Origin: an uncultured Phycisphaeraceae bacterium
GTDB lineage: Bacteria; Planctomycetota; B15-G4; JADJEK01
Assembly: GCA_964649825.1 (NCBI GenBank)
Contig: CAZYQW010000147.1
Coordinates: 15,217-79,216 of the forward strand
Length of the DNA: 64,000 nucleotides
Reading direction: 5' to 3'
The position numbers and the translations under genes were made by a program. The notes beneath the pieces are model-generated. The model had not been told where the DNA came from. It saw only the letters and a program-made list of their open reading frames with translations, and did not search any database. Each line of letters begins with the position of its first letter. Positions within the stretch are counted from its first letter, which is position 1. Below, in pieces: positions 12-6,773 of this stretch.

Positions 12-911
12 ATGACGCCGGAGCTGCACCTCTGTCATGACGTCGAGGTGGATCGCTGCGCCGTCTGCATCCCGAAGATGTGGGGCGGTTGGTTCGGTCG
101 CGGGCGCGACGGCGAAGCGTTCGAGCCGGCCGCCTCCCGCGCCAAGGACGTCGCTCAGTTGAACGAGTACCACGAGTGGATCCGCGCCGTGTTGTCGCGC
201 TGCGATCGGCTGGTCGCGCCGTCCGAATCGTCGCGCGAGATCTACGTGCGCTACGGCGTCCCCGTCGAGCGGATCACGGTCGTGGAGAACGGCCTCGATC
301 ACGCCCCGTTCCGCTCGATCGAGAGGACGACGTCCGCGTCGTTCCGCTTCGGCTTCATCGGCTCGGTCCTGCCGACGAAGGGCGTCCACGTGCTGATCGA
401 GGCGTTCGAGCGCCTCGGCCGACCGAACGCGCGGCTCGACGTCCACGGCGAACTCCTCGGCTGGCACGAGGTGCAGGACTACGGCGATCGAATCCGCGCT
501 CAGGCCGAGCGCGCCGGCGGGCGGATCACGCTGCACGGCCGCTACGAGGCGGCGGAGCTCCCCTCGATCCTCGGGCGCCTCGACGCGCTCGTCGTACCGT
601 CGCTCTGGTTCGAGGCGTTCTGTCTGACGTTGCGCGAGGGGTTTCTCGCCGGCGTTCCCGTGATCGCGTCGCGCCTTGGCGCGATGGCGGAAGGGATCGA
701 TGACGAGCGGACCGGGCTTCTGTTCGAGCCGGGCAACGCCGCCGACCTGGCCGCCAAGATGGCGCGCGTGATGGACGACGGGGCGTTGCGGGCGCGGCTC
801 GTCGGATCGACGAAGCGCGTGCGGACGATCGAGGAGAACGCGGCGGCGCTTCTCACGCTCTACGTTGGCGGGGCGGGCGGAAGGCCGGAGGGGCGGAGCG
901 AGCCGGACTGA
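12..911 (+). CDS. Glycosyltransferase family 4 (GT-B), C-terminal part; probably 5'-truncated by the window edge
   Basis: Motifs FGFIGSVLPTKGVHVLIEAF, DALVVPSLWFEAFCLTLREGFLAGVPVIAS and TGLLFEPGN. The frame stays open to the window start. Confidence 0.9.
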   Translation: MTPELHLCHDVEVDRCAVCIPKMWGGWFGRGRDGEAFEPAASRAKDVAQLNEYHEWIRAVLSRCDRLVAPSESSREIYVRYGVPVERITVVENGLDHAPFRSIERTTSASFRFGFIGSVLPTKGVHVLIEAFERLGRPNARLDVHGELLGWHEVQDYGDRIRAQAERAGGRITLHGRYEAAELPSILGRLDALVVPSLWFEAFCLTLREGFLAGVPVIASRLGAMAEGIDDERTGLLFEPGNAADLAAKMARVMDDGALRARLVGSTKRVRTIEENAAALLTLYVGGAGGRPEGRSEPD

Positions 912-2329
912 GTCGGAGTGATCTCGAGCTCGTACGCGCCGGACGGGATCCCACCCGGACGGCGGCCCTCGGCCAGCGATTCGATGAGCGCCATCGGCTC
1001 GCAGGAGAACCCGACCGTCTGCGTCGACTCGGTCATGGCCACTCGAAGGGTCGCGATCTCGAACCGCACGATCTCGTCGAGGTGATCGACGTCGAGCTCC
1101 AGGTCGCAGAGGTAGAGCGCGAACGAAGTCGCCTCGTCCGACGCGAACAGCTCGGGCTCCACGGTGCGGCAGAACCGATCGATCAGGTCGCGATACGCGG
1201 CGTCGCCGAGCGCGATGCGAAGCAACCGGCAGGTCAGGGTGAGCGCGTCGACGATCATTCCAGCGCGGGCGTGCCAGACGAGGTCGCGCAGGATCGAGAC
1301 CCCGTCGTCGAGTGCCAGTTCCCAGCCGAGCGAGCACTCGGGAGTCCGGCCGATCGCGAGCGTCGCGAGCGCGTCCTCCCACTCGGCCGGGGTCGGAAGG
1401 GGCGCGTCGTTTGCGACCGGCTTCGTCGTCGAGCCGGCCGGCCGCGGCCGGCGCTCGCGTCGCGCCCGGCCGCCGCGGGAACGCGAGTCGATCGCGAGGG
1501 AGAGCCGCTCGAGCTCGTCGCGGACCCCGTCGATCCCGAGTCGCGGGACGTAGTCGCCGAGCAGCTCGAACACGACGGCGCGGAGGTTCGGGAGGGCGGG
1601 GACGAGCTCGGTCAGCAGCTCGAGCACCTCGTCGGGCGTCGCCGCCGAGTGCGCGTCGAGCCAGTAGCCGTCCCGCTCGACGCCGCCCGCGACGTGGATC
1701 TCGACCACGCGATCGAGCGGAACGTCGGCGAGGAACTCGCGCACCGGCTGGCGGCCGTTTCTCTCGTTGGCGTACAGGTTGTGGAGGTCGAGCAGGATCC
1801 CGCAGTCCGCGCGCGTCGCGACGGCGGCGGCAAAGGCGCCGTCCGGCATCTCGCCGGGCCGCGGCTTCAAGTAATCGACCCCCGTCTCGAACAGGAACGG
1901 GACCGGGAGCCGGCAGGTCAGCGTCCGGATCGATCGGACCGCGGCGTCGACGCCGGCCGGGCTCGGGAAGGGCGGCAGCAGGAATCCGGCGAACCGTTCG
2001 CCATGCGGCCCGCGCGCCCGATTGAACGCCAGGTGCTCGCTGCACCACGGCGCATCGAGTGCGCGGACCACCTCGACGAGCGGGGCGACCTGGCGGGGGT
2101 CGGGAGGGATCGTCCCGCCGACCGGGAACCCGACGCCGTGGACGATCTTCGTCTGCGGCAGCGACCGGATCCGTTCGAGGTGGTCGCGGCTCATCGCGTA
2201 GGGTCGTTCCGCGCCGGCCACGTGACGCCAGAGCGTCTGCGGCTCGACCTCCACGTACGAGACGAGATCCTCGCTGGACCGGAGCAGCGGTTCCAGTCCA
2301 GGCGAGTACAGCAGTCCGAGTCCCGGCAC
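860..2329 (-). CDS. DUF692 / MNIO (multinuclear non-heme iron oxidative enzyme) with a C-terminal helical partner-like extension
   Basis: HGVG, SEHL, DLHNLYAN, EIHVAGG, LDAHS and VFE match the DUF692 metal-ligand pattern. About 170 aa follow the barrel. Start moved to GTG 2329, which has GGGAG upstream and lies just after the stop of the 2344-2577 gene. Confidence 0.9.
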   Translation of the reverse strand: MPGLGLLYSPGLEPLLRSSEDLVSYVEVEPQTLWRHVAGAERPYAMSRDHLERIRSLPQTKIVHGVGFPVGGTIPPDPRQVAPLVEVVRALDAPWCSEHLAFNRARGPHGERFAGFLLPPFPSPAGVDAAVRSIRTLTCRLPVPFLFETGVDYLKPRPGEMPDGAFAAAVATRADCGILLDLHNLYANERNGRQPVREFLADVPLDRVVEIHVAGGVERDGYWLDAHSAATPDEVLELLTELVPALPNLRAVVFELLGDYVPRLGIDGVRDELERLSLAIDSRSRGGRARRERRPRPAGSTTKPVANDAPLPTPAEWEDALATLAIGRTPECSLGWELALDDGVSILRDLVWHARAGMIVDALTLTCRLLRIALGDAAYRDLIDRFCRTVEPELFASDEATSFALYLCDLELDVDHLDEIVRFEIATLRVAMTESTQTVGFSCEPMALIESLAEGRRPGGIPSGAYELEITPTQSGSLRPSGLPPAPPT

Positions 2330-2343
2330 CGCGCTCGCTCCCG

Positions 2344-2577
2344 TCAGAAGCCGGGGCCGAAGTCGGCGACGACGTTCAGCTTCTCGTCGACGCGGAACCG
2401 GTTCTCGAGCCCGAACCGGATGTCGAATCCGGAGTGGCACTCGGAGCAGCCGAGGCGCCCGAGAATGTCCTTCGTCACCTTCTGCATCGCGGTCAGGTCG
2501 AAGGCCACCTGCGCCGGGATGCTCACCTTCACCGCCTTCAGGGTTCCGATCTCGGCTTGGGTCTTGTCGAAATGCAT
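2344..2577 (-). CDS. 77-aa peptide with a CxxC(H)SG motif; putative MNIO substrate/precursor
   Basis: MHFDKTQAEIGTLKAVKVSIPAQVAFDLTAMQKVTKDILGRLGCSECHSGFDIRFGLENRFRVDEKLNVVADFGPGF. GGAG lies 8 nt before ATG 2577, and the stop is 14 nt before the MNIO start. Confidence 0.8.
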   Translation of the reverse strand: MHFDKTQAEIGTLKAVKVSIPAQVAFDLTAMQKVTKDILGRLGCSECHSGFDIRFGLENRFRVDEKLNVVADFGPGF

Positions 2578-2791
2578 CGCTCGATCTCCAACGTTTCTTC
2601 TCGCACGGGCCTCCGACTCTTTCGGAGGCCGGACTGCTCCACGCCGAATCCGGGCCCGCGGCGTCAAGAAAAAGAGGTTTCTGTCGTGCCGGCGGTTTGG
2701 ATCACCCCCGACGCGGGTCGAGAGAGCGTCACACTCGGGGGCGACGTTCCGTTCTCCTCTCCAGTGGCCCGTGACCCAGCCGGAGACCTCG

Positions 2792-5323
2792 ATGAACCTC
2801 GCGCTTCGCACCACCTCGTTCCTTCTTGCCGCGTCCACCGTCGCGGGGGCCGCGCCCGCGGTGCGGCCCGCGCTGCCTCCCGCGTTCGTCCAGAACCGAG
2901 GGCAGCTCGACGAAGCCGTCGAGTTCGTGGCCCGCCACGGCGGGATCGTCACGTTCGTGACCCGGGAGGGGTTTCGCCTGCGGGCCCATGCTCCCGACGG
3001 AACGCGTGGCGCCGCGGTCTTCTTCCGCTTCGAGGGCGCGGCCGGCGACGCCCGCGTGACCGGACTCGACCGGTTCGAAGCGCCGTTCCACTTCCTCGTC
3101 GGTGAGCCGTCCGAGTGGCGCACCCACGTCGCCGGCTTTCGGTCGGTCCGACTCGAGGAGCTCTATCCCGGCGTCGACGTCGAACTGCATCATCGCGGTG
3201 GGCGGGTCGCGTACGACCTGCGGCTCGCCCGCGGGGCGGACCTGTCCCGCGTCAGCATGCGGTGCGACGGCGTGGACGCGCTCGAGATCGACGAGGGCGG
3301 CGCGCTCGTCCTGAGGACGTCGATCGGTGATCTCCGGCAGACGCCGCCGGTCGCGTTCGTCACGGACGACGACGGGAGGCGGCGCGCGGTCGAGTGCCGG
3401 TTCGTGCCCCTTGGCGACTCGCGCTACGGCTTCACCGCGGACGGCTGGACGGGCGACCGACCCCTCGTCATCGATCCCGGCATCGAGCTCTCGACCTACC
3501 TCGGAGGGAACCCGGCCGACGTCACCGCGACGGGCATCGGCGACGGGGCGGCGGCCGTCGCGGTCGACGCCGATCGGAACGTCTACGTCACCGGCTCCAC
3601 CGACGACGCCGACTTCCCGACCACGCCGGGAGCGTTCGACGTGACGTTCGAAGGGAGCCTCGGCTTCATCAAGGGCGACGTCTTCGTCGCCTCCTTCGAC
3701 CCGACCGGAAAAGTCCTCCGGTTCGCGACGTTCCTCGGCGGGAACTTCGGCGAGCAGGCGACCGGGCTCGCGCTCGACGCGAGCGGCAACGTCTACGTCA
3801 GCGGCACCACGGACGGCGGGACGTTCCCCTCCACCCACGAGTTCGGCACGTCGATGGTCTTCGGTCTCTCGACGTTCACGTCGTTCGTCGCGCGCCTCGA
3901 CCCGCTCGGCACGACCCTCGGATGGGCCGCGCTGATCCACGACTGCTCGCTGAGCGCGATCGCGCTCGACGGCGTCGGAGGGCTCTACGCGGTCGGCTCC
4001 GCCGCGTTCCAGGCCGGCGTCACCGGTTTCCCGGCGACGCCGGGCGCCTATTCGACGACCCACTCCGGGGGCTTCTGGGACCAGTGCGCGCTGAAGCTGA
4101 CCACCGACGGTCAGACCCTCGTGTACGCGACGTTCCTGGGCGGAACGAACTACGACGTCGGCCGGGCGATCGCCGCCGATCCGTCGGGCGTCGCGTTCAT
4201 CGGCGGCGACACGTTCTCCGCCGCGTTCCCGGTGTCGAGCTCCGCGTTCGACACGACGCGCAGCACCTTCCTCGTCGAGGGGACCATCTCGCGCCTCGAC
4301 CCGACCGGGTCGCTGCTCGTGGCGTCCACGCTGCTCGGGGCGGGGAACAACTCAGGCGTGCGGTCCCTCGCGATCGGCTCTCAAGGCGAGCTGGTGGTGG
4401 CCGGCCAGGTGTGGGACTTCGACGGGCTCACGGCGCCGGTGCCGTTCTTCGTCACCCCCGGCGCGTTCGATACTGTGTACGACGGAGACACGGACGGGTT
4501 CTGCGCCAAGCTCGACCTCGGCCTCGCCACGCTGCTTGCGTCGACGTACGTCGGCGGCCCGGGCGACGACGGCGCGACAGGGATGGTGCTCGACTCGTTC
4601 GATCGCCCGTACGTGGCGGGATGGACGAGTTCGACGACGTTCCCGGTCACGGCCGACGCGGTCGACGCGACCTTCAACCAGCACCCCACTCTGCCGAGCG
4701 GCTTCGATGTCTCGTTGGTGCAGCTCGAGAACGACCTGAGCGCGCTCCGCTACGGCACGTACTTCGGGGGCGTGTTCGACGACTCGGTTCGCGACCTGGT
4801 CGTGACGCCGGAGGGCGTCGTCTACATCGCCGGGATGACGCGGTCGCCGGACCTGCCGACGTCGCCCGGGGCGTACGACTCGGTCTGGAGCGGGAACCAG
4901 GACGCGTTCGTGGCGAAGATCGAGTTCTGCCCGGGATCGCTCCTGCGCGAGTACGGCACAGGCTGTCCGGGTACGTCGTCGATCACGCCGGCCCTCCACG
5001 GGGACGGTTGTCCGTCGCCCGACTCGACCATCGTGCTGCGAGTCTTCGGCGCCCTCGGCGGGGCCACCGCGTTCGTCCTGGTCGGACCGTCCGCCGGCGC
5101 TCTTCCGCTGAACCCGGGCTGCATCCTGGCGCTCGGCGGGGTGTCGATCCTGTTCGCGGTGCCGCTCGCGACGGGTGGACCCGGCGCGGGCGAGCAGGTG
5201 TTGACGGTGAAGATGCCGCCGATGTTCCCGATCGCCGACGCGTACGTTCAGGCGGTGATCCCCGACCCGGGCGCCCCGTTCGGCTTCGCGGCGACGAACG
5301 GGCTGCGGGTGCACCTGCAGTAG
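2792..5323 (+). CDS. Secreted SBBP-repeat (beta-propeller) surface protein with a conserved C-terminal domain
   Basis: Signal peptide MNLALRTTSFLLAASTVAGA; N-terminal FVQNRGQ...LVIDP domain; repeated (S/A)TYLGG...VAVDADRNVYVTGST..DFPTTPGAFD units. Start set at ATG 2792 because the upstream part of the ORF is the antisense shadow of the MNIO operon. Confidence 0.85.
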   Translation: MNLALRTTSFLLAASTVAGAAPAVRPALPPAFVQNRGQLDEAVEFVARHGGIVTFVTREGFRLRAHAPDGTRGAAVFFRFEGAAGDARVTGLDRFEAPFHFLVGEPSEWRTHVAGFRSVRLEELYPGVDVELHHRGGRVAYDLRLARGADLSRVSMRCDGVDALEIDEGGALVLRTSIGDLRQTPPVAFVTDDDGRRRAVECRFVPLGDSRYGFTADGWTGDRPLVIDPGIELSTYLGGNPADVTATGIGDGAAAVAVDADRNVYVTGSTDDADFPTTPGAFDVTFEGSLGFIKGDVFVASFDPTGKVLRFATFLGGNFGEQATGLALDASGNVYVSGTTDGGTFPSTHEFGTSMVFGLSTFTSFVARLDPLGTTLGWAALIHDCSLSAIALDGVGGLYAVGSAAFQAGVTGFPATPGAYSTTHSGGFWDQCALKLTTDGQTLVYATFLGGTNYDVGRAIAADPSGVAFIGGDTFSAAFPVSSSAFDTTRSTFLVEGTISRLDPTGSLLVASTLLGAGNNSGVRSLAIGSQGELVVAGQVWDFDGLTAPVPFFVTPGAFDTVYDGDTDGFCAKLDLGLATLLASTYVGGPGDDGATGMVLDSFDRPYVAGWTSSTTFPVTADAVDATFNQHPTLPSGFDVSLVQLENDLSALRYGTYFGGVFDDSVRDLVVTPEGVVYIAGMTRSPDLPTSPGAYDSVWSGNQDAFVAKIEFCPGSLLREYGTGCPGTSSITPALHGDGCPSPDSTIVLRVFGALGGATAFVLVGPSAGALPLNPGCILALGGVSILFAVPLATGGPGAGEQVLTVKMPPMFPIADAYVQAVIPDPGAPFGFAATNGLRVHLQ

Positions 5324-5360
5324 CGCCATCCGATACGGGCGGGGCGCGGGCGGATCGACG

Positions 5361-6773
5361 TCAGGCTTCGGCGAGCGCGCGGGCCGCGCCGCGGCCGGCC
5401 GCGAACCCGCTCGACCACGCCCACTGGAAGTTGAATCCGCCGAGCCGTCCGGTGCAGTGGGCGACCTCGCCGCAGAAATGCAGGCCGCGCCGGCGGCGGC
5501 TCTCGAGCGTAGCGCGGTCGAGGTCGGCGAGGAGCACGCCGCCGCGCGTCACCTCGGCCTTGTCGAAGCCGTCGACGCCCGAGAGCTCGAGATCCGCGTA
5601 CGCGAGCGCGACGTGGACGCGACGCCACTCCGACGTGGAGAGGTGCGCCGCGGACTTGTCGCCCTCGACGCCGGACCTCGCGACGAGCGCGGCGGCGAGC
5701 GAGCGCGGCAGGCGCGCGGCAAGGACGTTCAGCAGGGCTCGCCGGTCCGCGCCGTCGATGGCGCGTGCGTCGGCGACGAACGCGTCGAGGCCGATCGGCC
5801 GCGGCGTGTCGATCGCGCGCAAGCACGCGCCGGGCGGTTTCGCGAGCGAATGGAACCGCGCCCAGGGGGAGTCGGGGGTGGCGAGCGACCAGAAGTCGGC
5901 GCGGAGCCGCACCGCGTCGCCGCGCGCCAACGCGAGCGCGCACGCGCCGCTGACGTCGAGCGCGGCGGGGCCGGTCGCGCCGCGGTGGGTGACCAGCAGG
6001 CTCCCCGCCGCCCGCGCCAGCGGCCGAAACCTCGATCCCCCGATCTGCTCCGGCGGAGCCTCGGCCGGCGCGAGCGTGAGCAGCGCCGGCACGGTGACGC
6101 CGGCCAGCCCGGCGAGCGGTGACGCGCTGGTCAGGAAGAGCGGCGTGAGCGCTGGAAGCACCTCGGAGAGCGCGTGGCCCGATCGAGCCGCGACCTCGAA
6201 CCCGAACCCCCGCGATCCGGTACGCGGAAGGCTCTTGCCGCCGGTCGCGATCACGACCCGGCGCGCGTGAACGGCGCCGCCGGCCGCGGTCGAGGCGACG
6301 AAGCCGTTGCCGCCGGCATCGATCGCCGTGACCTCGACGCCGGGCTCGAGCGTCGCGCCGGCGCGCTCGACCGCATCCACGAGGATCCGCAGCACGTCGC
6401 GCGCGCGGTCCGACGTCGGGAACAGCTTGCCGAGCGGTTCGGCGTAGAGCGGACATCCGCCTTGCTCGAGGAACGTGCGTATGCCGGACGGCGGAAAGCC
6501 GCGCAGCACGCTGCGCGCGACCTTGGGGAGGTCGGTGTCGAAGTCGGTCTCGTCGACGACCTCGTTGGTGACGTTGCACCGCCCGCCCCCCGACACGAGG
6601 ATCTTGAGCCCGACCCGCGCCGACGCGTCGATCACTCGCACGCGGGGCGCGTCCGCCGGCGGACTGGCGGGCGCGCCCCGTCCGTCGACGGCCCCGCGCG
6701 CGGCGATCGCGGCGAACAGCCCGGCCGCCCCCGCGCCGACGATCAGGAGGTCCGTCGCGTCGGGCCGGCTCAT
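5361..6773 (-). CDS. HI0933/YhiN (BaiN-like) NAD(P)/FAD-dependent oxidoreductase
   Basis: IVGAGAAG, KILVSGGGRCNVTN, AEVTRGGV and FCGEVAHCTGRLGGFNFQWAWSSG. ATG 6773 overlaps the MFS stop (ATGA). Confidence 0.9.
   Translation of the reverse strand: MSRPDATDLLIVGAGAAGLFAAIAARGAVDGRGAPASPPADAPRVRVIDASARVGLKILVSGGGRCNVTNEVVDETDFDTDLPKVARSVLRGFPPSGIRTFLEQGGCPLYAEPLGKLFPTSDRARDVLRILVDAVERAGATLEPGVEVTAIDAGGNGFVASTAAGGAVHARRVVIATGGKSLPRTGSRGFGFEVAARSGHALSEVLPALTPLFLTSASPLAGLAGVTVPALLTLAPAEAPPEQIGGSRFRPLARAAGSLLVTHRGATGPAALDVSGACALALARGDAVRLRADFWSLATPDSPWARFHSLAKPPGACLRAIDTPRPIGLDAFVADARAIDGADRRALLNVLAARLPRSLAAALVARSGVEGDKSAAHLSTSEWRRVHVALAYADLELSGVDGFDKAEVTRGGVLLADLDRATLESRRRRGLHFCGEVAHCTGRLGGFNFQWAWSSGFAAGRGAARALAEA

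Follow-up and report, generated by a model that had tools for sequence, protein, structure and literature searches.

A small CxxC protein and an MNIO fused to a DUF2063-like domain: a putative two-gene maturation cassette in an uncultured Phycisphaeraceae bacterium

What can an MNIO (DUF692) enzyme do when the only gene that accompanies it encodes a small protein with a single pair of cysteines? This question is raised by two adjacent genes of an uncultured Phycisphaeraceae bacterium (assembly GCA_964649825.1), which we analysed in a stretch of 64,000 nt of contig CAZYQW010000147.1. This stretch is referred to as the window and all coordinates relate to it, except those following an L number, which belong to one of the loci used for comparison. 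The initial annotation had recognised here a gene for a 77-aa peptide and a gene for an MNIO with a partner-like domain, and we confirmed both on the minus strand. From the comparisons described below, we regard it as quite probable that the small protein and the MNIO fusion are substrate and enzyme. With modest confidence we also favour the reading as a whole, in which the two genes form a self-contained maturation cassette and the small cytoplasmic protein would be modified at Cys47 and possibly bind metal.

The gene pair and its conservation

The small gene (2344-2577 including the stop, minus strand) runs from an ATG at 2577-2575 to a TGA at 2346-2344 and encodes 77 aa (MHFDKTQAEIGTLKAVKVSIPAQVAFDLTAMQKVTKDILGRLGCSECHSGFDIRFGLENRFRVDEKLNVVADFGPGF), of which C44 and C47, inside LGCSECHSG, are the only cysteines. 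It was recognised as a precursor-like gene from its translation, its homologues and a family profile, which scores it with 92.5 bits; it is the sole copy in the window. The enzyme gene starts with a GTG at 2329, ends at 860 and encodes 489 aa. We accepted this start because it agrees with the gene call in a relative of 86 % identity (L098) and with the way homologues begin (consensus ..LPxLGVGxVYxPGLEPLL). The intergenic spacer of 14 nt at 2330-2343 (minus strand, CGGGAGCGAGCGCG) contains GGGAG, as read from the sequence, and indicates translational coupling of the two genes. At other loci the genes overlap or stand about 5-50 nt apart.

We compared 80 loci from more than 12 phyla, 79 of them with upstream sequence. 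The profile recognised a member of the small-protein family directly upstream of the enzyme in 76 of these 79, although part of its training set comes from the same loci. The remaining three are cyanobacterial and carry divergent small open reading frames (ORFs) upstream, in which C-x-S-G is retained. Contigs reached from the side of the small protein encode a fusion of about 484 aa directly downstream wherever the contig is long enough, and the objection foreseen by the initial annotation, that homologues of the peptide might usually occur without DUF692, did not hold. A word-index search with the small protein returned six clusters only and understates the size of the family. The short ORF is not a product of chance, since its protein homologues are found in organisms of low and of high GC content, and in every case the gene of the same enzyme follows directly.

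Full-length relatives of the enzyme are encoded in 294 species genomes. The carriers include Acidobacteriota, Thermoanaerobaculia, Massilia, Thiodiazotropha, Lysobacter, Xanthomonas, Streptomyces, Amycolatopsis and Glutamicibacter, and further Chloroflexota, Cyanobacteria including Microcystis, Bacteroidota, Nitrospinota, Gemmatimonadota, Verrucomicrobiota and one archaeal metagenome-assembled genome (MAG). Cultured carriers of the pair include Novilysobacter spongiicola DSM 21749, Massilia atriviolacea, Glutamicibacter soli, Xanthomonas bonasiae and Streptomyces lavendulocolor JCM 4390. In the archaeal case (L082, match 4001-5365) the cassette lies on a 294-kb contig of the MAG of Candidatus Nitrosothermus koennekii (Nitrososphaerota) and the precursor reads GCPNCHSGKDILF. 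The motif classes of the precursors (CxxCHSG, CxxCCSG, CPACTSG, GHxxCxSG and two-domain forms) track the enzyme tree and cut across phyla, as expected of an enzyme-substrate pair that travels together.

When the ORFs up to 4 kb away from the pair were clustered for all 80 loci, nothing proved conserved besides the two genes, the rest being synteny confined to single lineages, and no protease, transporter or regulator was among the conserved neighbours. The remark of the initial annotation that the operon has no protease or transporter can be extended to the whole set in this sense. A functional link to neighbouring genes for an EgtD-like methyltransferase, a radical SAM protein, a peroxiredoxin or an ABC ATPase was rejected, as each of them is confined to one lineage. 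The gene for the EgtD-like histidine methyltransferase (PF10017) is located directly upstream and on the same strand in L003 (703-1728), L004 (130-1155) and L005 (531-1556), in a low-GC lineage only.

The enzyme and its fused partner domain

Pfam model PF05114 (MbnB_TglH_ChrH) matches residues 12-249 of the enzyme with an E-value of 1.1e-38 and 133.5 bits, against a gathering cut-off of 25. An AlphaFold2 model built on 48 homologues (pLDDT 91, pTM 0.89) consists of a TIM barrel (residues 1-285), a poorly ordered linker (286-313), a second domain (314-470) and a disordered tail (477-489). In the window, all on the minus strand, these parts correspond to 1475-2329 for the catalytic barrel, supported by PF05114 and Foldseek; 1391-1474 for the linker, which is of low complexity and low confidence (pLDDT 51-67) and not conserved in the alignment of homologues; 920-1390 for the second domain, which is delimited by the AlphaFold2 model and characterised by hhalign; and 860-919 for the tail and stop, non-conserved in the alignment and disordered in the model from residue 477. 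Foldseek with the full model recovered TglH (8hi7_B, E-value 4e-17, template modelling score on target 0.78), MbnB (7fc0_E, E-value 7e-12, score on target 0.84) and the DUF692 structure 3bww, and the 50 best matches contained matches to the barrel only. TglH was also hit by phmmer with an E-value of 3e-15, and the identity to MbnB is 14-19 %.

Eleven His, Asp, Glu and Asn residues (H64, H99, E148, D181, H183, N184, N188, H212, D225, H227 and E255) are identical in 75 of 75 family enzymes, are also invariant in the set of 48 and fall in motifs common to TglH. By analogy with the published structures of MbnB and TglH they are candidate iron ligands or catalytic residues, and judging from the alignment the active site is intact. 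The enzyme stays below every NCBIfam equivalog cut-off (113 bits against 400 for ApyH, 104 against 310 for BufB, 82 against 360 for HvfB and 38 against 600 for ChrH). Because these scores are so far below the cut-offs we place it outside the characterised MNIO subfamilies; that it might fall inside one of them was the second objection foreseen by the initial annotation. The nearest characterised enzymes by sequence are ApyH and TglH.

The initial annotation had described about 170 extra C-terminal residues, which is right for the folded domain, while the whole extension with linker and tail amounts to about 200. The domain folds as seven helices followed by strand-helix-strand, with a pLDDT of 91-94 across models and of 94.5 when modelled alone. 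The pTM of 0.89 for the two-domain model suggests that the arrangement of the two domains is fixed. For comparison we used six genuine BufC/DUF2063 proteins from plasmid-borne DUF2282-DUF692-DUF2063-DoxX bufferin operons as reference partners. Using hhalign, the alignment of the C-terminal domain matched these proteins with a probability of 90.7 %, a P-value of 1.2e-6 and a score of 47.7 over 113 collinear columns. The match begins at the 'VYRN' region, takes in the helices 'LG..F..la..y....P', 'yG..F..fL' and 'PYL.dvarlE' and ends in the first strand of the part resembling the RiPP recognition element (RRE; RiPPs are ribosomally synthesised, post-translationally modified peptides). Of the controls, the reversed alignment scored 12.6 and the best of 30 column shuffles 16.9. 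We interpret the domain, on this alignment, as a divergent and shortened DUF2063-like partner fused to the enzyme, 'PME-type 2' by the criteria of Antoine et al., and the partner-like fusion suggested by the initial annotation is borne out in this form.

Relatives of the C-terminal domain had to be collected in a roundabout way. The word-index search with the domain alone gave no matches, not even the protein from the window, and the relatives were found instead by a full-length search and an exhaustive profile search, which resulted in 760 clusters at 50 % identity. The best-scoring 150 of these 760 are all fusions (460-510 aa) or N-truncated fragments, and no stand-alone version of the domain is found among them. 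Short matches were considered as possible stand-alone partners, and the one that was checked, P0161, was rejected as a fragment at a contig edge. The sequence profile of the domain recovered noise only from the PDB sequences.

The small protein

The N-terminus of the small protein (MHFDKTQAEIGTLKAVKVSIPAQ) is devoid of a hydrophobic stretch typical of a signal peptide, and the cysteine motif is internal, with 30 residues following Cys47; on both points the initial annotation was right. It had also spoken of a peptide, and in this respect our view differs. The conserved unit, a domain of approximately 60 residues, opens with V-[RK]-V-[ST]-[IL]-P and continues with a helix, the stretch G-[C/H]-x-x-C-x-S-G-x-D-[I/C]-x-[F/Y] and finally [E/R]-x-F-[VI]-[VI]-[DN]. 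Because this unit is conserved over its full length and is sometimes duplicated in tandem as a unit, the small protein is not of the leader-core type. For the protein of the window, the sequence pattern suggests a strand (VKVSIP), then a helix (AFDLTAMQKVTKDILGRL), a cysteine loop (G-C44-x-x-C47-x-S-G) and two further strands (FDIRF and RFRVD).

The motif was quantified on 89 domains from 70 loci. The ORFs were picked by the C-x-S-G pattern, so the invariance of C-x-S-G in this set is by construction. Relative to the conserved cysteine, glycine is present at position -4 in 88 domains, cysteine at -3 in 74, histidine at -3 in seven, aspartate at +5 in 82 and an aromatic residue at +8 in 84. A cysteine or histidine stands two to four residues before the conserved cysteine in 88 of the 89. 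Over all 80 loci, the ORF immediately preceding the enzyme gene contains C-x-S-G in 70, and in L036 the motif is found further upstream. The CxxCH-SG motif, as the initial annotation had written it, is thus to be revised, as His48 is not conserved (H, F, C, T or I), while Cys47, Ser49, Gly50 and Gly43 are conserved and position 44 is occupied by Cys or His. The conserved G-[C/H]-x-x-C-x-S-G-x-D core, in which a single Cys of a loop rich in Gly and Ser stands out as the feature best conserved, makes Cys47 the likely target. In the window, the core G43-C44-S-E-C47-H-S49-G50 is encoded at 2428-2451 (minus strand), with the codon of Cys47, the proposed modification site, at 2439-2437. Many relatives have an extra cysteine at +1 (CC) or +6 (D-C). 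The motif looks corrupted in Massilia frigida (L016, ORF ending at 896), which reads GCPAWSSGCDIRDD where other Massilia have GCPACTSGFDIRY, and this may represent a frameshift or a decaying copy.

Tandem two-domain precursors were identified in 21 of the 80 loci and two separate copies in another two. The former (L024, L029, L032, L039, L042, L044-L050, L054, L057, L060, L062, L063, L065, L067, L074 and L077) belong to one enzyme clade distributed over many phyla. Each domain retains its own strand-helix element; the first typically reads GCPKCFSGADCFF, with a third cysteine, and the second G[AP][HC]PC[HI]SGFD. These forms may correspond to the 'adjamnio-IV' group of Antoine et al. (PMC12452194), which is described there as proteins of 119-146 aa with 5-6 cysteines and without a partner gene. 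As for separate copies, precursor-family ORFs at 3394-3660 and 3720-3974 in L022, and at 3151-3582 and 3204-3968 in L086, lie upstream of a single enzyme gene.

No Pfam or NCBIfam 20.0 model was matched by the protein from the window or by 47 relatives as a model for the small-protein family, and the profile of the small protein searched against PDB gave noise only. Weak matches to YbcO, HVO_0758 and PaoA were rejected as chance CxxC matches.

Comparison with known MNIO systems

The family itself has already been listed in the literature. The small protein of L058 is WP_078758616.1 of Novilysobacter spongiicola, and WP_078758616 is the named example of 'adjamnio-7', which Antoine et al. (2025, Microb Genom, PMC12452194) present with cluster #7 of the MNIO sequence similarity network (SSN) as putative precursors without signal peptide and with a CxxC motif. 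The protein from the window is 52 % identical to WP_078758616 over the whole domain. From this homology, the same enzyme context, the lack of a signal peptide and the CxxC motif we assign it to the adjamnio-7 family; the cluster #7 label of the enzyme is taken via the named example of the paper and not from placement in the SSN. The two proteins differ in class, CxxCH in the window and CxxCC in the example. Since the family was listed in 2025 as adjamnio-7, it is less new than the initial annotation had assumed.

The paper gives adjamnio-7 one sentence and a figure panel, and it shows an AlphaFold model for it and none for the family it predicts to be unstructured. Its accessible text mentions no experiment, fused domain, C-x-S-G core or tandem forms for this family, and the supplements contain no text on adjamnio-7. 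In the literature searched, the term 'adjamnio' appeared in no other paper, the motif strings of the small protein had no match, and there was neither a description of a fused partner domain in cluster-#7 enzymes nor experimental work on the family. The word 'fused' in the Std paper was considered and concerns another enzyme. At NCBI all members of the small-protein family are named 'hypothetical protein'.

From the sequence comparisons, the system differs from the characterised MNIO systems in its fused DUF2063-like partner and in its putative folded substrate, which lacks a signal peptide and bears an internal C-x-S-G. Bufferins (BufA/BufB/BufC) are similar in combining an MNIO with a DUF2063-type partner and a fairly long, structured cysteine precursor encoded directly upstream, and their BufC aligns collinearly with the C-terminal domain studied here. 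However, bufferin precursors are of the DUF2282 or BUF_6/12Cys type, carry a Sec signal peptide and are periplasmic, and the small protein of the window has no signal peptide. It shows none of the bufferin or oxazolin signatures (DUF2282, BUF_6/12Cys, EGKCG or a Sec signal), and Pfam and NCBIfam precursor families were unmatched in its 47 relatives. In bufferin systems, often with DoxX in the operon, the partner stands alone, with ~250 aa and a complete RRE-type domain, whereas here it is fused, shortened and below the Pfam threshold; DUF2063-like partners are usually encoded separately, right after the MNIO gene. A complete bufferin-type operon of DUF2282, DUF692, DUF2063 and DoxX was observed on the E. 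coli plasmid pHN32wt (L095, 1945-4449). Conjugative plasmids of E. coli carry such operons, and matches came from 72 plasmid records of Escherichia. A different MNIO cluster, in which genes for a radical SAM protein, a DUF692 protein and two hypothetical proteins precede one for a TldD-related peptidase, was seen on a Bacillus cereus plasmid (L097, 448-5357).

MovX, from a methanobactin-like cluster of Vibrio, is also an MNIO without a separate partner and with an extra domain aboard, a winged helix-turn-helix thought to serve the partner role (PMC12452194). It differs in that its target is a C-terminal Asn, at which the N-C-alpha bond is cut, that the extra domain is not DUF2063-like, and that the enzyme belongs to SSN cluster #21 and not #7. 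TglHI (pearlin/3-thiaglutamate) and ApyHI (aminopyruvatide) are related through the enzyme, as TglH is the closest solved structure and ApyH the best NCBIfam model. Their precursors likewise lack a signal peptide and the partners belong to 'PME-type 2', but they work with a leader-bearing peptide, a C-terminal residue is modified and the partners are separate, while the cysteines of the window protein are internal. In the MbnBC system, an MNIO with a similar barrel and a partner act on a Cys that precedes small residues and convert it to an oxazolone-thioamide, which binds metal. There, the short leader-core precursors are cleaved and exported by dedicated genes, and MbnC is a separate protein.

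Proposed mechanism and alternative explanations

In the mechanism that we propose, the fused partner domain would dock the small protein by its N-terminal strand and helix, with the VKVSIP strand expected to pair with the strand-helix-strand element (residues about 437-470), and so present its cysteine loop to the iron site, where the enzyme would oxidise Cys47 with O2. Most likely this would be the four-electron reaction that Cys-directed MNIOs typically carry out, with an oxazolone-thioamide or a 5-thiooxazole as product. The modified residue could then form a metal-binding or redox-active site together with Cys44, a position that is Cys or His in nearly all relatives. As there is no dedicated machinery for cleavage or export, the product would act inside the cell. 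The minimal architecture that the initial annotation had envisaged, a fused partner and no export genes, is supported by the structural model, by hhalign and by the survey of 80 neighbourhoods. Pursued to its end, the proposal has a heterocycle or thioamide derived from Cys built in as the prosthetic group of a small folded cytoplasmic protein, which might serve as an intracellular buffer or chaperone of metal, e.g. Cu(I), or as a redox cofactor protein. The pair would move between phyla as a unit, including into an ammonia-oxidising archaeon, because the maturase carries its own substrate-recognition partner. We put this extended version forward as a tentative idea only, and the heterocycle-plus-metal part, taken for itself, is likewise doubtful.

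Several observations weigh against the proposal. The C-terminal domain misses the cut-off of the Pfam model for DUF2063 (PF09836). The domain of the window has no match to it at all, and the weak matches of six of 23 relatives (best E-value 8.4e-4; about 14-15 bits, cut-off 27.2) all cover one stretch, residues 52-100 of the domain and positions 34-83 of the profile. In a Foldseek search of PDB with the model of the domain (pLDDT 94.5) the best E-value was 1.0, and 3DEE, MbnC and TglI were not listed. The nearest relatives of the enzyme, ApyH and TglH, act on C-terminal residues and make no heterocycles, which makes the proposed heterocycle chemistry a guess. Finally, in a clade of related Acidobacteriota (L055, L056, L061, L066, L068, L075 and L084) the upstream protein has no C-x-S-G, and in some cases no nearby cysteine, while the enzyme keeps all 11 residues. 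The small protein of these loci still scores 30-72 bits, and its ORF immediately precedes the enzyme match, in most of the seven at about 3660-3975.

The Acidobacteriota clade, with a recognisable small protein that lost its motif beside an intact enzyme, is an argument for regarding the small protein as an accessory subunit, a donor of iron or electrons or a regulatory or chaperone protein with a CxxC site, while the true substrate of the MNIO would be unlinked or a small molecule. The similarity of the CxxC stretch to zinc-finger and Fe-S models is weak and does not rise above noise. We consider the accessory role quite improbable, as the slot directly upstream of an MNIO gene is the standard position of the precursor, the enzyme already bears a partner-like domain whose relatives recruit precursors, the motif classes co-vary with the enzyme clades, and duplicated domains and genes, as in L022 and L086, are typical of substrates and not of subunits. 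Neither do we expect a classical secreted RiPP, in which an N-terminal leader would be removed and a short modified peptide released by general proteases and exporters encoded elsewhere. The order of precursor and MNIO genes is the classical one, some RiPP clusters are served by unlinked proteases, and a radical SAM gene near one low-GC relative and the EgtD-like methyltransferase genes near others could be read in this way. But no protease or transporter is conserved across the 80 loci, the conservation runs through the C-terminal strands past the cysteine loop and is not limited to the N-terminal part, and tandem precursors repeat the entire unit, so this explanation appears very improbable.

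Enzyme and substrate may be as proposed and only the chemistry different, for example a TglH-like excision of the beta-carbon of Cys47, a cross-link to Cys44 or another residue, or some other oxidation. The product would then serve as a redox cofactor or sulfur carrier bound to protein and not as a metal chelator. The nearest enzymes by sequence and fold, ApyH and TglH, and not the heterocycle-forming MbnB, BufB or HvfB, point in this direction, and so do the extra cysteines at +1 or +6 in many relatives. MNIO reactions are diverse, even though most characterised enzymes act on Cys (Table 1 of PMC12452194). On the other hand, the Cys or His found two to four residues before the conserved cysteine in nearly all domains fits a ligand pair at least as well, and we regard the different chemistry as unlikely, while the substrate-enzyme relation would be kept in either case.

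Other features of the locus

Upstream of the small gene, on the same strand, we read a ribosome-binding site GGAG at 2586-2589, 8 nt 5′ of the ATG. Its 5′ leader or promoter region also contains a perfect 9-bp inverted repeat at 2608-2630 (minus strand; GGCCTCCGA N5 TCGGAGGCC). The repeat and the next 15 nt (2593-2607, CGTGCGAGAAGAAAC) are kept in the relative L098, where the remaining upstream region diverged, and together they could be an operator or an element of the 5′ untranslated region. Rfam and tRNA scans of the window gave no matches. The promoter scan found nothing either, which is expected at 69 % GC.

The enzyme gene converges on a GT4 glycosyltransferase gene (12-911), with a 3′ overlap of 52 nt at 860-911, in which the disordered and non-conserved residues 477-489 of the MNIO are encoded. 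On the other side lies a divergent gene (2792-5323, plus strand) for a protein with a DUF7948 domain and SBBP beta-propeller repeats. Its hydrophobic N-terminus may indicate secretion, and it has no evident tie to the cassette. It is followed by genes for an HI0933-like flavoprotein and a major facilitator superfamily (MFS) transporter. As both flanking genes are unrelated, the unit in the window consists of the two genes alone.

Implications

The locus in the window is one more member of a family listed in 2025, and its value lies in the anatomy of the family and not in this instance; specialists familiar with the papers on the MNIO landscape will not be surprised by the family. The unusual peptide chemistry known from MNIOs is growing fast, and each subfamily characterised so far has yielded a new reaction. 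The subfamily described here is large (760 clusters at 50 % identity, about 294 species), and as a minimal system of two genes with the partner built in, it lends itself easily to experiments and has a fair chance of revealing new chemistry. The fused enzyme and partner may also be a convenient single-chain model of how partners present substrates. If the product is indeed a modified cytoplasmic protein and not an exported peptide, the metal-binding groups made by MNIOs would reach the cytoplasm, beyond the periplasm and the medium, and the border between RiPPs and the maturation of protein cofactors would be blurred.

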